Positions 2,305 through 55,677 of a DNA stretch of 64,000 nt are shown here, piece after piece. A program made the translations under genes and the position numbers. The DNA lies in assembly GCF_003018255.1 (NCBI RefSeq), contig NZ_CP027440.1; one strand, given 5' to 3'. The notes beneath the pieces are model-generated. The model searched no databases. It was given only the letters and a program-made list of their open reading frames with translations, and was not told the DNA's origin. Each line of letters starts with the position of its first letter. The first letter of the stretch is position 1. This DNA is from Escherichia coli (GTDB lineage: Bacteria; Pseudomonadota; Gammaproteobacteria; Enterobacterales; Enterobacteriaceae).

Positions 2305-3696
2305 ATGAACTTTCCATTAATTGCGAACATCGTGGTGTTCGTTGTACTGCTGTTTGCGCTGGCTCAGACCCGCCATAAACAGTGGAGTCTGGCGAAAAAA
2401 GTGCTGGTGGGTCTGGTGATGGGTGTGGTTTTTGGCCTCGCCCTGCATACCATTTATGGTTCTGACAGCCAGGTACTTAAAGATTCTGTACAGTGGTTTA
2501 ACATTGTTGGTAACGGCTATGTTCAACTCCTGCAAATGATCGTTATGCCGTTAGTCTTTGCCTCTATTCTGAGCGCGGTTGCCCGTCTGCATAACGCATC
2601 ACAGTTAGGCAAAATCAGTTTTCTGACCATCGGAACGCTTTTGTTTACCACACTGATTGCGGCGCTGGTCGGTGTGCTGGTCACCAACCTGTTTGGTTTG
2701 ACGGCTGAAGGTCTGGTTCAGGGTGGTGCAGAAACTGCACGTTTGAACGCCATCGAAAGTAACTATGTTGGTAAAGTCTCTGACCTGAGCGTTCCGCAGC
2801 TGGTCTTGTCCTTTATCCCGAAAAACCCGTTTGCCGATTTGACCGGAGCCAATCCGACGTCAATTATCAGCGTGGTAATTTTTGCCGCATTCCTCGGCGT
2901 AGCTGCGCTGAAGCTGCTGAAGGATGATGCGCCGAAAGGTGAACGCGTCTTAACCGCTATCGATACCCTGCAAAGCTGGGTGATGAAACTGGTTCGCCTG
3001 GTCATGCAGCTGACCCCTTACGGCGTTCTGGCGCTGATGACCAAAGTGGTTGCAGGTTCTAACCTGCAAGACATCATCAAACTGGGAAGTTTCGTTGTCG
3101 CGTCCTACCTCGGTCTTCTGATTATGTTTGCAGTGCATGGCCTTCTGCTGGGTATTAATGGCGTGAGCCCGCTGAAGTACTTCCGTAAGGTATGGCCAGT
3201 ACTGACGTTTGCCTTTACCAGCCGTTCCAGTGCTGCGTCTATCCCACTGAATGTGGAAGCACAAACGCGTCGACTCGGTGTTCCTGAATCCATCGCCAGT
3301 TTCGCCGCCTCTTTCGGTGCAACCATTGGTCAGAACGGCTGTGCCGGTTTGTATCCGGCGATGCTGGCGGTGATGGTTGCGCCTACGGTTGGCATTAACC
3401 CGATGGACCCGATGTGGATTGCGACGCTGGTCGGTATTGTTACCGTTAGTTCCGCAGGCGTTGCCGGTGTCGGTGGTGGTGCAACTTTCGCCGCACTGAT
3501 TGTGCTGCCTGCGATGGGCCTGCCGGTAACGCTGGTGGCATTGTTAATCTCCGTTGAACCGCTTATCGACATGGGTCGTACGGCGCTAAACGTTAGTGGC
3601 TCGATGACCGCTGGCACGCTGACCAGCCAGTGGCTGAAGCAAACCGATAAAGCTATTCTGGATAGCGAAGACGACGCCGAACTGGCACACCGTTAA
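2305..3696 (+). CDS. tcyP: L-cystine transporter (sodium:dicarboxylate symporter family) TcyP/YdjN
   Basis: 463-aa polytopic membrane ORF; RBS caggagaacgggg upstream. Confidence 0.85.
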
Positions 3697-11628: not shown

Positions 11629-11949
11629 TTAATTTGCTGCGGCTTTTTTAATCGCTGCAACCGCAGCCTTAAGCACGCCTAAACCATCGACTTTGCCATA
11701 AAGCAGCGAGTCAATTACTTCAACCGGTTTGTTGGGTAACAAACGCTGGATTTCGGGCAACATATAAGCAATCTGCGGCCCTAATAACACGACATCGGCA
11801 TTCTGACCTTTTTCACCAGCCAGTGTTTCCGGAAATGCTTCAATAATGACCGGAACTTCATATTTTTCTGCCTGTGCGCGCATTTTTGATACCAGTAAAG
11901 AGGTAGACATGCCCGCAGAACAAAACAGATAAATGTGTTTCTTTTCCAT
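11629..11949 (-). CDS. chbB: PTS chitobiose-specific EIIB component
   Basis: 106-aa ORF with phosphorylatable Cys ([11 protein letters not shown]). Confidence 0.9.
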
Positions 11950-52141: not shown

Positions 52142-53632
52142 ATGAAATTGCACCATAGAATGCTCCGGCATTTTATCGCCGCAAGTGTCATTGTGCTGAC
52201 ATCTTCCTTCCTTATTTTTGAACTTGTCGCCAGCGACAGAGCAATGAGTGCCTATCTGCGCTATATCGTGCAGAGAGCAGACTCCTCCTTTCTTTATGAT
52301 AAGTATCAGAATCAGAGTATTGCCGCGCATGTGATGCGCGCTCTCGCTGCTGAGCAGTCGGAAGTGTCGCCAGAACAGCGGCGCGCCATCTGCGAGGCTT
52401 TTGAGTCTGCCAATAATACCCATGGCTTAAACCTGACTGCCCATAAATACCCGGACTTACGCGGCACACTACAAACCGCATCCACTGACTGCGACACAAT
52501 TGTGGAAGCTGCAGCACTATTACCCGCTTTTGATCAGGCAGTGGAAAGCAACCGCCACCAGGATGATTACGGTTCAGGTCTTGGGATGGCCGAAGAGAAA
52601 TTTCACTATTATCTCGATCTCAATGACCGCTATGTCTATTTTTATGAGCCGGTTAATGTTGAGTACTTTGCGATGAATAACTGGTCTTTCCTGCAGTCAG
52701 GAAGTATTGGCATCGATCGCAAAGATATTGAAAAGGTATTTACCGGGCGTACCGTTTTATCGAGCATTTACCAGGATCAGCGTACTAAACAGAACGTGAT
52801 GAGTTTGCTGACGCCGGTATATGTCGCAGGGCAGCTAAAAGGGATTGTGCTGCTGGATATTAACAAAAACAATCTGCGGAATATCTTTTACACTCATGAC
52901 CGCCCTCTCCTCTGGCGTTTTCTCAATGTCACGCTAACCGATACCGATTCGGGGCGCGACATTATCATCAACCAGAGCGAAGATAATCTGTTCCAGTATG
53001 TCAGTTACGTCCATGACTTACCGGGCGGCATTCGTGTCTCGTTATCCATTGATATTCTTTACTTTATCACGTCTTCGTGGAAAAGCGTTCTGTTCTGGAT
53101 TTTGACGGCGTTAATTTTGCTGAATATGGTGCGGATGCACTTCCGTTTATACCAAAACGTGTCGCGAGAAAATATTAGTGATGCGATGACTGGACTGTAT
53201 AATCGCAAAATTTTAACCCCTGAACTGGAGCAGCGGTTGCAGAAGCTGGTGCAATCCGGTTCTTCGGTGATGTTTATTGCAATTGACATGGACAAGTTAA
53301 AGCAAATAAATGACACCCTCGGTCATCAGGAGGGGGATTTAGCGATTACGTTATTAGCTCAGGCGATTAAACAATCGATTCGTAAAAGTGATTATGCCAT
53401 CCGACTCGGTGGCGATGAATTCTGCATCATTCTTGTCGATTCGACGCCGCAAATTGCAGCACAACTGCCTGAACGTATCGAAAAACGTCTGCAACATATC
53501 GCGCCGCAGAAAGAGATCGGCTTCTCTTCCGGTATTTACGCGATGAAAGAAAACGATACGTTACATGATGCGTATAAAGCTTCCGATGAGCGTTTATATG
53601 TCAATAAGCAGAACAAAAACAGCCGTTCATGA
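52142..53632 (+). CDS. yeaJ: membrane-anchored diguanylate cyclase YeaJ/DgcJ
   Basis: ORF 51962-53632; start at ATG 52142 with RBS aaggag; intact RLGGDEF motif; 496 aa. Confidence 0.85.
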   Translation: MKLHHRMLRHFIAASVIVLTSSFLIFELVASDRAMSAYLRYIVQRADSSFLYDKYQNQSIAAHVMRALAAEQSEVSPEQRRAICEAFESANNTHGLNLTAHKYPDLRGTLQTASTDCDTIVEAAALLPAFDQAVESNRHQDDYGSGLGMAEEKFHYYLDLNDRYVYFYEPVNVEYFAMNNWSFLQSGSIGIDRKDIEKVFTGRTVLSSIYQDQRTKQNVMSLLTPVYVAGQLKGIVLLDINKNNLRNIFYTHDRPLLWRFLNVTLTDTDSGRDIIINQSEDNLFQYVSYVHDLPGGIRVSLSIDILYFITSSWKSVLFWILTALILLNMVRMHFRLYQNVSRENISDAMTGLYNRKILTPELEQRLQKLVQSGSSVMFIAIDMDKLKQINDTLGHQEGDLAITLLAQAIKQSIRKSDYAIRLGGDEFCIILVDSTPQIAAQLPERIEKRLQHIAPQKEIGFSSGIYAMKENDTLHDAYKASDERLYVNKQNKNSRS

Positions 53633-53674
53633 TAACCTTCTGTGGTTGTTTGCTTGTAATCTCAGGAGCATGAA

Positions 53675-54178
53675 ATGACTGAAATGGCTAAAGGAAGCGT
53701 GACGCATCAGCGGTTAATCGCTTTATTATCACAAGAAGGTGCTGACTTCCGCGTCGTTACCCATGAAGCGGTAGGTAAATGTGAAGCGGTGTCAGAAATT
53801 CGTGGCACCGCTTTAGGCCAGGGGGCTAAGGCACTGGTATGTAAAGTCAAAGGCAATGGTGTAAATCAACATGTTCTGGCGATCCTCGCGGCCGATCAAC
53901 AGGCCGATCTGAGCCAACTCGCCAGCCATATAGGCGGATTACGCGCTTCGTTGGCCAGCCCGGCGGAAGTCGATGAACTCACAGGCTGTGTCTTCGGCGC
54001 GATCCCCCCTTTCAGCTTCCATCCAAAACTCAAACTGGTTGCCGATCCCCTACTCTTCGAACGATTTGATGAAATCGCCTTCAATGCAGGCATGCTGGAT
54101 AAATCCGTTATTTTGAAAACCGCGGATTATTTGCGCATTGCGCAACCAGAACTGGTCAATTTCCGCCGCACTGCGTAA
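53675..54178 (+). CDS. yeaK: YbaK/ProX-family aminoacyl-tRNA deacylase YeaK
   Basis: 167-aa ORF. Confidence 0.8.
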   Translation: MTEMAKGSVTHQRLIALLSQEGADFRVVTHEAVGKCEAVSEIRGTALGQGAKALVCKVKGNGVNQHVLAILAADQQADLSQLASHIGGLRASLASPAEVDELTGCVFGAIPPFSFHPKLKLVADPLLFERFDEIAFNAGMLDKSVILKTADYLRIAQPELVNFRRTA

Positions 54179-54283
54179 CTAGCCTGTCCGTTCGATAAGA
54201 AGAACGGACAAAACCAGCACAACAGCAATGGCAAAAAACGATGACGTGATAATCAGTGTCTCGACGAACATTTGATCGTTCAT
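54179..54283 (-). CDS. yoaI: 34-aa small membrane protein YoaI
   Basis: Read by hand on minus strand: ATG AAC GAT CAA ATG TTC GTC GAG ... TAG = [34 protein letters not shown]; not in ORF track (below 60 aa). Confidence 0.75.
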
Positions 54284-54452
54284 AGTATGCCCCCGGGAGA
54301 TAGTTGTTTTCACGTTATTGTTAGCGTGCGCAAATGGCAGTTTGATGACAGTTCGCCTGATTTTTTATGCAAAAAACGTAAAGATTTTCTACTTCCTTCC
54401 TGCAGCAAGCGTAAAGTAAGCAGGCTTATTATTCTTTGGCAAGGAAACCACG

Positions 54453-54899
54453 ATGTTTGATGTCACTTTGCTGATCCTGCTCGGGTTAGCTGCGCTGGGC
54501 TTTATCAGTCATAACACCACTGTCGCCGTTTCAATTCTGGTGTTAATCATTGTCCGCGTCACACCGTTAAGCACCTTTTTCCCGTGGATTGAAAAACAGG
54601 GGCTAAGTATCGGGATAATCATTCTGACGATTGGCGTTATGGCTCCCATCGCCAGCGGGACGCTACCGCCCTCAACCCTGATTCACTCGTTTCTGAACTG
54701 GAAATCGCTGGTGGCAATTGCAGTCGGCGTTATTGTCTCCTGGCTGGGGGGGCGCGGCGTGACGTTAATGGGCAGCCAGCCGCAACTGGTCGCCGGGCTG
54801 CTGGTGGGCACTGTTTTGGGCGTGGCGCTGTTTCGCGGCGTACCGGTTGGCCCGCTTATTGCCGCGGGTCTGGTTTCGCTGATTGTGGGGAAACAGTAG
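54453..54899 (+). CDS. yeaL: DUF441 inner membrane protein YeaL
   Basis: 148-aa hydrophobic ORF. Confidence 0.8.
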
Positions 54900-55677
54900 T
54901 TAATCCCGCAATATATCGGCCTGGCGTTTGCCCCAGGCCTTTCTTAAACATAGTAATAAAGGCCGTTGTTGAATCATACCCCAGCGTATGAGCAACTTTC
55001 TGTACAGTATCGCCTTTCACTAATCCCTGAAGCGCCATAATCAGCTGTAACTGCTGACGCCACTGGCGAAAACTCACCCCCGTCTCTTTCACTATCAGTC
55101 GGGCAAGATTGCGTTCACTCATCGCAAAAAAGCGAGCCCATTGCCCCAATGACCCCCACTCGACGGGCTCTTTCGCCATCATCTCCACCATCGCGCGGAT
55201 TTTAGGATGAGAAGAAACGGGTAGGTGCAGCTGTTGTTGTGGCTGCTGAGGGAGTTCATCAAACAGGACCTGAATTAATCTGCGGGTCATCGGCTCAGCA
55301 CGCTGAGTCGTCGTCCTGTTTGCCAGGGTTAAAATTAATTCCCGGCATAAGGGCGATATTTTCAATGTGCAACAGGTTGTCGGCATTGTCACTGCGCTGG
55401 GTTCGATAAACAGAAAACAGAGTTCAGCGTTAGCTGTCACTTGATTGCTATGTTCCACCCCTCCCGGTATCCAAACCGCATATTGTGGCGGCACCATCCA
55501 CAAAGCATTTTCCACCGTACAGGTAATTGCACCATGTAGTGCCAGTATCAACTGTCCTTTGCGGTGCTGATGTACAGGACTGGTTAACTCATCCGTTCCG
55601 GCGTGAATACAAAATGCGACCGCGGCTTCATGGTGTCGGTCGGGTTCATAGCCATTGAGATTCAACCTGTGCATCAT
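54856..55677 (-). CDS. yeaM: AraC-family transcriptional regulator YeaM/NimR
   Basis: 273-aa ORF with cupin N-domain and AraC HTH; 3' end overlaps yeaL by 44 bp. Confidence 0.85.

Follow-up and report, generated by a model that had tools for sequence, protein, structure and literature searches.

The DNA analysed here, referred to below as the window, is a 64,000-nt stretch of an Escherichia coli genome (contig NZ_CP027440.1 of RefSeq assembly GCF_003018255.1). On its minus strand lies yoaI, a gene of 34 codons followed by TAG, which runs tail to tail into yeaK on one side and diverges from yeaL on the other; the coordinates of the features at this locus are collected in Table 1. The plus strand reads ACTGCGTAAC TAGCCTGTCC across 54170-54189, and the junction of the two convergent genes within it is ...GCG TAA|CTA GCC..., in which the TAA at 54176-54178 closes the 167-codon ORF of yeaK and the CTA at 54179-54181 is the reverse complement of the TAG that closes yoaI. 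These two stop codons adjoin, and the stop-to-stop gap is therefore 0 nt. The product of yeaK matches the Pfam model PF04073 (tRNA_edit) with 95.5 bits and is named 'mischarged aminoacyl-tRNA deacylase' in RefSeq; that of yeaL matches PF04284 with 151 bits. The spacer between yoaI and yeaL is 169 nt long and holds the yoaI promoter and a Pho box. The next convergent pair along the window, yeaL/nimR, is tighter than yeaK/yoaI, the 3' ends of its coding sequences overlapping by 44 nt (54856-54899), and is also found in the ExcludonFinder core list.

When 53600-54500 was compared by megablast with 5,426 complete E. coli genomes, 5411 of them proved to have the region, and the features annotated beneath the match are dgcJ, yeaK, yoaI ('small membrane protein YoaI') and yeaL ('DUF441 domain-containing protein'). 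The RefSeq name of the yoaI product is the same in all records listed (protein WP_000999630.1). The RefSeq-annotated yoaI CDS (3580-3684, minus strand) directly follows yeaK (3076-3579), which gives the same relative coordinates as in the window, and the gene order of the syntenic slot yeaK / yoaI / yeaL, with yoaI convergent with yeaK, is likewise identical. Searched against curated families, the YoaI peptide matches the NCBIfam equivalog NF041475 with 79.8 bits (E = 1.1e-22; curated cut-off 45 bits), its residues 1-34 falling on positions 1-34 of the 34-position profile; a Pfam scan of the same peptide matched no model. The feature at 54179-54283 is bona fide yoaI, a gene that is already annotated and experimentally characterised, and is not new. 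An earlier note on this DNA, made from the letters alone, had called the gene yoaI, and the RefSeq annotation and the family match bear the name out; the peptide that it gave is an exact match to the minus-strand translation, the zero-gap tail-to-tail layout with yeaK that it described is confirmed by the two stop codons, and the ORF that it had found missing from a 60-aa ORF track is a real gene whose 34 aa lie under the 60-aa floor.

Table 1. Features of the yoaI locus in the window
Feature	Position	Strand	Description
Pho-box-like match GTGTCATTGTGCTGACAT	52185-52202	+	2 mismatches; within the 5' part of the dgcJ ORF
yeaK	53675..54178	+	167 aa, free-standing aminoacyl-tRNA trans-editing domain protein; convergent with yoaI
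221-nt core	54140-54360		Segment compared among E. coli genomes
yoaI	54179..54283	-	34 codons + TAG
Perfect 9-bp inverted repeat TGTCCGTTC-N8-GAACGGACA	54185..54210	both	Found by repeat finding; yoaI codons 25-33
Shine-Dalgarno-like purine run CGGGGGC (coding strand)	54288..54294	-	8-12 nt 5' of the ATG
AACAAT, probable -10 element	~54317-54322	-	10 bases 3' of the Pho box
Published PhoB motif TGTCATCAAACTGCCATT	54333-54350	-	Assigned to yoaI/yeaL
Pho box CTGTCATCAAACTGCCAT	54334..54351	-	50 nt 5' of the ATG, where a -35 element would be; 1 mismatch
yeaL	54453..54899	+	DUF441 membrane protein (RefSeq annotation); divergent from yoaI
nimR	54856-55677	-	Convergent with yeaL

Start codon and promoter of yoaI

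The ORF lister extends the yoaI frame to a GTG at 54313, which would yield a 44-aa form. We place the start at the ATG at 54283 because of the spacing of the Shine-Dalgarno-like run, the conservation across genera from Met-Asn-Asp onwards and a probable transcription start that lies at about the GTG itself. The 44-aa form was rejected, as its extension has no conservation outside Escherichia, and it is further disfavoured by the GGGGG Shine-Dalgarno that serves the ATG. A GGGG, GAGG or GGAG run occupies the equivalent position in most yoaI orthologues.

The Pho box was scored against the consensus CTGTCAT-N4-CTGTCAT, two 7-bp repeats with an 11-bp periodicity, for which 0.30 matches with at most two mismatches are expected by chance in the window. 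The motif that Fitzgerald et al. assign to yoaI/yeaL from PhoB ChIP-seq (PMC10294691) is present in the window in nearly the same place (Table 1). From its spacing, the AACAAT that follows the Pho box is the probable -10 element, and the 5' UTR of yoaI would then be about 25 nt long. A consensus scan returned no sigma-70-like promoter relevant to yoaI or yeaK, which is expected for yoaI because a PhoB-dependent promoter lacks a -35 element. Across the 42 yoaI loci compared (the window and the 41 orthologues described below), a Pho box with at most two mismatches is located 43-57 nt 5' of the start in 27, and one with at most four mismatches 43-61 nt 5' of the start in all 42; the background rate of the former is 26 in 4100 random 120-nt windows taken from the yoaI comparison loci. 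Its sequence agrees with membership of yoaI in the Pho regulon, with a Pho box that replaces the -35 element and keeps its position in the orthologues.

The second Pho-box-like match in the window, within dgcJ, is at the level expected by chance for a window of this length and is absent from the PhoB ChIP-seq results in the available part of PMC10294691.

Conservation and loss of yoaI in the Enterobacteriaceae

The comparison set consists of 80 loci from different GTDB species, all of the Enterobacteriaceae, and was anchored on YeaK rather than on YoaI because this avoids a bias towards loci that already carry the ORF. A profile search of all small ORFs recovered a YoaI orthologue in 41 of the 80 loci. 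Together with the window these give 42 sequences, the ORF being 34 aa long in 31 of them, 35 aa in five, 33 aa in three, 31 aa in two and 32 aa in one. Over 31 distinct 105-nt coding sequences, the yoaI frame has a pooled Nei-Gojobori dN/dS of 0.19; the two alternative sense frames give 1.03 and 2.49, and the three antisense frames 0.67, 0.37 and 2.62. Pairs of these sequences differ on average by 0.31, 0.14 and 0.51 per site at codon positions 1, 2 and 3. Selection acts on the YoaI protein and not on the nucleotide sequence alone. Conservation of the ORF across related genomes, which had been named beforehand as the test on which the gene could fail, is a test that it passes.

YoaI has a single transmembrane helix at about residues 10-30, over which the Kyte-Doolittle mean is 2.85, in line with the single-pass protein first proposed. 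The helix is preceded by an acidic N-terminus (D3, E8) and followed by the C-terminal tail E31-R32-T33-G34, in which R32 is the sole basic residue of the protein. This charge distribution, together with the published tagging strategy, suggests an orientation with the N-terminus outside and the C-terminus inside. S26 never varies among the 31 orthologues of 34 aa, and V27, E31 and R32 hardly do; the published alignment gives Ser26, Val27 and Glu31 as invariant (bioRxiv 10.1101/2024.09.13.612970).

Of the 5,411 E. coli genomes with this region, 5,405 share at least 95% identity with the window over the 221-nt core. A K-12-like strain differs from the window at six positions of the core, three of them synonymous in yoaI and three upstream, and its YoaI and YeaK proteins are identical to those of the window; strain Esc1 carries V21A and two synonymous changes in the loop of the hairpin formed by the inverted repeat of Table 1. 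Over the three E. coli alleles compared, four of the five substitutions within yoaI are synonymous. In strain A30 (NZ_CP092500.1; L082 1498-2583) an IS5 transposase element is inserted in the same loop, and the annotated YoaI is 31 aa long and ends ...SVLRLC, L29-G34 having been replaced by RLC with the loss of Glu31. The yoaI of this strain is predicted to be a natural loss-of-function allele. The window itself carries a minority allele: 156 of the 5,411 genomes are at least 99% identical to it over the 221 nt, and most are 95-99% identical, with no change in the YoaI protein.

About half of the sampled species lack yoaI, including Klebsiella, Raoultella, Kluyvera, the Citrobacter freundii group, Atlantibacter and Pseudocitrobacter; the gene is therefore dispensable and has been lost repeatedly. 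The spacer between yeaK and yeaL measures 60-190 bp without yoaI and 250-330 bp with it. Four loci, in three Kluyvera species and strain LSJC7, have spacers of 246-324 bp in which a six-frame inspection found no YoaI-like ORF, and a divergent yoaI hidden in these long spacers was rejected on that ground. Enterobacter quasihormaechei (L052 3022-3162) retains a remnant of yoaI with an internal deletion, which has kept half a Pho box and the last nine codons (ASVLLLENG*) but lost the start codon and most of the transmembrane segment.

One locus (L036, CACSKA010000011.1), labelled Chryseobacterium sp. 18061, carries an Enterobacteriaceae-type yeaK (80% identity) with an adjacent yoaI; this assembly is probably contaminated or mislabelled.

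The convergent junction of yoaI and yeaK

In 39 of the 41 yoaI-bearing species yoaI is convergent with yeaK and directly beside it, with gaps that range from -4 to +30 nt. All seven Escherichia lineages share the zero gap with Cedecea davisae, and at eight loci (Salmonella enterica subsp. arizonae and diarizonae, three Trabulsiella, Yokenella, Pluralibacter and Enterobacter sp. BIGb0383) the two stop codons overlap by 4 nt, a gap of -4 nt; the remaining loci have gaps of +1 to +30 nt, with 20-21 nt as the usual value in Enterobacter and Lelliottia. Escherichia thus shows one state, the zero gap, of an old and tightly packed convergent layout. In Huaxiibacter chinensis and one Enterobacter asburiae genome, a gene for a TonB-dependent receptor of 680-689 aa (L028 3020-5359 and L030 3018-5338; Pfam Plug and beta-barrel domains) separates yoaI from yeaK; it has the orientation of yoaI and lies 3' of it. 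The separated yoaI still has its ORF and Pho box in both, and the receptor gene may be co-transcribed with yoaI from the Pho-box promoter. As yoaI persists apart from yeaK, its retention is independent of an abutting yeaK. We infer that the tight layout is mainly a matter of genome compaction, with at most weak interference on yeaK.

With a gap of 0 nt, an mRNA of either gene that continues past its stop codon is antisense to the neighbouring gene. Overlapping convergent 3' ends, which had been predicted from the abutting stop codons, follow in practice from this geometry and are reported by ExcludonFinder, which counts yeaK-yoaI as one of 165 convergent pairs with such an overlap in at least 50% of 58 MG1655 transcriptomes (PMC12288877). 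A consensus scan of both strands, between the genes and just beyond them, found no intrinsic terminator for yoaI or yeaK, and no C-rich, G-poor stretch that could serve as a Rho-loading (rut) signal was seen 3' of either stop codon.

This arrangement raises the question of an excludon, in which PhoB-driven antisense transcription from yoaI would lower yeaK mRNA through polymerase collision or RNase III cleavage of the duplex, so that phosphate starvation would turn down the YeaK trans-editing deacylase. The zero gap without an intrinsic terminator on either strand, the place of the pair in the core E. coli 'excludome' and the tight packing kept in 39 of 41 species all speak for such an effect. 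In the published low-phosphate table, yeaK RNA stands at 389/413 in the wild type and 709/655 in a phoB deletion (log2 -0.8, q = 0.0115), a 1.7-fold shift that misses both limits set in the source study (q < 0.01, at least 2-fold) and does not isolate an effect in cis (PMC10294691). The direction is the one that a roughly 400-fold induced yoaI would predict, yeaK being lower where yoaI is at about 12,000 (wild type) than where it is at about 28 (phoB deletion), but hundreds of unrelated genes, ribosomal protein genes among them, move similarly in the same table. Furthermore, about half of the sampled species have yeaK without yoaI and the receptor gene splits the pair in two others; adjacency is therefore not required for either gene, and among close relatives it is expected from vertical descent alone. 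We consider an excludon at this junction unlikely, and a regulatory effect of the overlap on yeaK, at most modest and unproven, no more probable than that.

The inverted repeat in the 3' end of yoaI forms a hairpin that begins 7 nt 3' of the yeaK stop codon, with six unpaired bases between. The plus-strand (yeaK) RNA folds with -16.6 kcal/mol (z = -3.6), and the minus-strand (yoaI) RNA with -25.8 kcal/mol (z = -4.4) into a longer stem, of some 15 bp, with the stop codon inside it. As a functional RNA element, the hairpin would act as a bidirectional transcript end or a 3'-protecting stem for both yeaK and yoaI, and the codons for S26-V27-L28 and E31-R32-T33 would then be under an additional constraint. 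Such a role would accord with a fold that is strong and unusual on both strands, with its placement just past the stop codon of yeaK and over that of yoaI, and with the two changes in strain Esc1 that sit in the loop and not in the arms. The Enterobacter-type loci, with gaps of 20-21 nt, have a different short hairpin of their own within the gap, and junction windows are somewhat more structured than controls from the interior of yeaK (mean z -0.87/-0.77 against +0.12/+0.28), with a Wilcoxon p of ~0.001-0.002 that ignores phylogenetic relatedness. We do not claim a general junction hairpin from this weak tendency, given the kinship of the sequences behind the p value.

Several observations argue against a function of the hairpin. 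Its strong form is confined to E. coli, E. albertii and Escherichia sp. MOD1-EC7003; other Escherichia lineages have a weaker one and loci outside the genus lack it, and its outermost pair is already lost in the K-12-like allele. The alignment of 31 orthologues shows no covariation: the share of paired cells is 58.4%, close to the 57.8% of shuffles, and a covariation score as high as the observed one is reached by 172 of 500 shuffles. No U-tract follows the hairpin on either strand, nor does a C-rich rut-like stretch. The arms fall for the most part on the conserved S-V-L and E-R codons and largely follow from these residues; the complementarity may largely be a by-product of protein conservation and Escherichia codon choice. 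A family-wide conserved RNA structure is rejected, pairing being no different from that in shuffles, and the hairpin is retained as a feature of part of Escherichia, for which a functional role is distinctly unlikely. The two ideas can be joined into a single one, in which PhoB-driven yoaI is a cis antisense brake on yeaK and the 3' hairpin defines or protects both transcript ends, with the consequence that phosphate starvation would lower the aminoacyl-tRNA trans-editing factor YeaK; we hold this combination to be very doubtful.

YoaI, PhoB and the sensor kinase EnvZ

Published work places yoaI under the control of PhoB. In RNA-seq data the gene stands at 11,755/12,778 in the wild type and 32/23 in a phoB deletion (log2 8.8), a ChIP-seq peak lies at yoaI/yeaL, and the occupancy of this site by RNA polymerase and sigma-70 is PhoB-dependent; yeaL RNA is without PhoB dependence in the published table (PMC10294691). 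A yoaI promoter reporter is PhoB-dependent and PhoQ-independent (Vellappan et al., bioRxiv 10.1101/2024.09.13.612970; journal version Sci Signal 2025;18:eadu7253). The same study reports a Ribo-RET initiation peak at the yoaI start that rises ~12-fold in low Mg2+, detects YoaI-SPA in membrane fractions in low Mg2+, and recounts earlier tagging studies, in rich medium and under several stresses, in which YoaI was undetected (bioRxiv 10.1101/2024.09.13.612970). Ribosome profiling and epitope tagging, the two checks suggested in the earlier note, are both positive in these data.

In two-hybrid assays YoaI binds EnvZ and shows no interaction with PhoQ or PhoR, the contact with EnvZ being based on two-hybrid and reporter assays and not on a structure or an in-vitro kinase assay (bioRxiv 10.1101/2024.09.13.612970). 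Deletion of yoaI lowers an OmpR-dependent omrB reporter by just ~1.4-2-fold, and overexpression raises it more than 7-fold in a manner that requires envZ; the changes in omrB, ompC and ompF reporters are envZ-dependent and are lost in E31A and E31Q, variants that no longer interact with or activate EnvZ although the protein is still in the membrane (bioRxiv 10.1101/2024.09.13.612970). These findings agree with the expectation, voiced in the earlier note, that a small membrane protein of this kind would regulate a larger one. Overexpression also causes a growth lag that is independent of EnvZ and dependent on PhoQ (bioRxiv 10.1101/2024.09.13.612970), and this lag therefore points to a second target of YoaI that is not explained by EnvZ.

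In Table S1 of PMC10294691, ompF RNA in low phosphate is 44.6k/51.7k in the wild type and 118k/98k in the phoB deletion (log2 -1.2), or 2.3-fold lower in the wild type. This is an independent dataset, and the direction is the one expected if PhoB-induced YoaI activates EnvZ-OmpR, a connection that the available part of that paper does not draw.

That the ORF is a chance or non-functional one, and the conserved element merely DNA or RNA such as the 3' UTR of yeaK, could draw on its shortness, its absence from about half of the related species and the failure of the earlier tagging studies to detect its product, but this reading is refuted by the codon-position pattern and the dN/dS of 0.19 that are specific to the yoaI frame, by a length held at 31-35 aa over 41 species, by the full-length match to a curated family, and by the protein seen in membranes, the Ribo-RET start peak and the loss of function in E31A and E31Q with the protein present (bioRxiv 10.1101/2024.09.13.612970).

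The structure of the locus, coupled with the published data, gives a coherent account of the activity of YoaI. Under phosphate limitation, PhoB binds the Pho box 50 nt 5' of the ATG and drives the transcription of yoaI, whereas low Mg2+ acts post-transcriptionally and increases translation from the ATG at 54283. In the inner membrane, probably with its N-terminus out and its C-terminus in, the protein binds the sensor kinase EnvZ through its short cytoplasmic tail, in which Glu31 is essential, and raises the output of EnvZ-OmpR. The promoter site, the PhoB-dependent transcription, the translation, the membrane location and the activation of EnvZ are the findings of others; the ORF geometry, the family membership, the purifying selection and the conserved position of the Pho box come from the present analysis. 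We assign a probability of roughly 0.95 to the reading as a whole, in which yoaI is a PhoB-driven 34-aa inner-membrane activator of EnvZ and the zero gap to yeaK is mainly compaction.

The value of these results is confirmatory, yoaI being already annotated, assigned to a curated family, placed in the Pho regulon and published as an activator of EnvZ. The comparative data give independent support for selection on the YoaI protein and present the zero gap as a variable state (-4 to +30 nt). The yeaK-yoaI pair shares its short intergenic distance with the convergent pairs of ExcludonFinder as a class; the sole hint of reciprocal repression in it is the sub-threshold 1.7-fold shift of yeaK in the phoB deletion.

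The closest counterpart is the YoaI of E. coli K-12 (NF041475; WP_000999630.1), which has the same protein, Pho box and 0-nt gap, and in the K-12-like strain the neighbours dgcJ-yeaK / yoaI / yeaL-nimR-nimT are the same as in the window. MzrA links CpxAR to EnvZ-OmpR. Like YoaI, this 127-aa inner-membrane activator binds EnvZ, raises OmpR-P and connects another two-component system to it, and it is mentioned as a stimulator of EnvZ in the study of YoaI (bioRxiv 10.1101/2024.09.13.612970). The two sequences are unrelated, MzrA is four times larger, and YoaI stands outside the MzrA family; its proposed action is through a 4-residue cytoplasmic tail with Glu31, and it is controlled by PhoB, whereas MzrA is controlled by CpxR. 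MgrB and SafA/B1500 resemble YoaI in being single-pass proteins of fewer than 70 aa that are transcribed by a two-component system and modulate a membrane histidine kinase. MgrB inhibits PhoQ, the kinase of its own system, and thus provides negative feedback, whereas YoaI activates the kinase of a different system.
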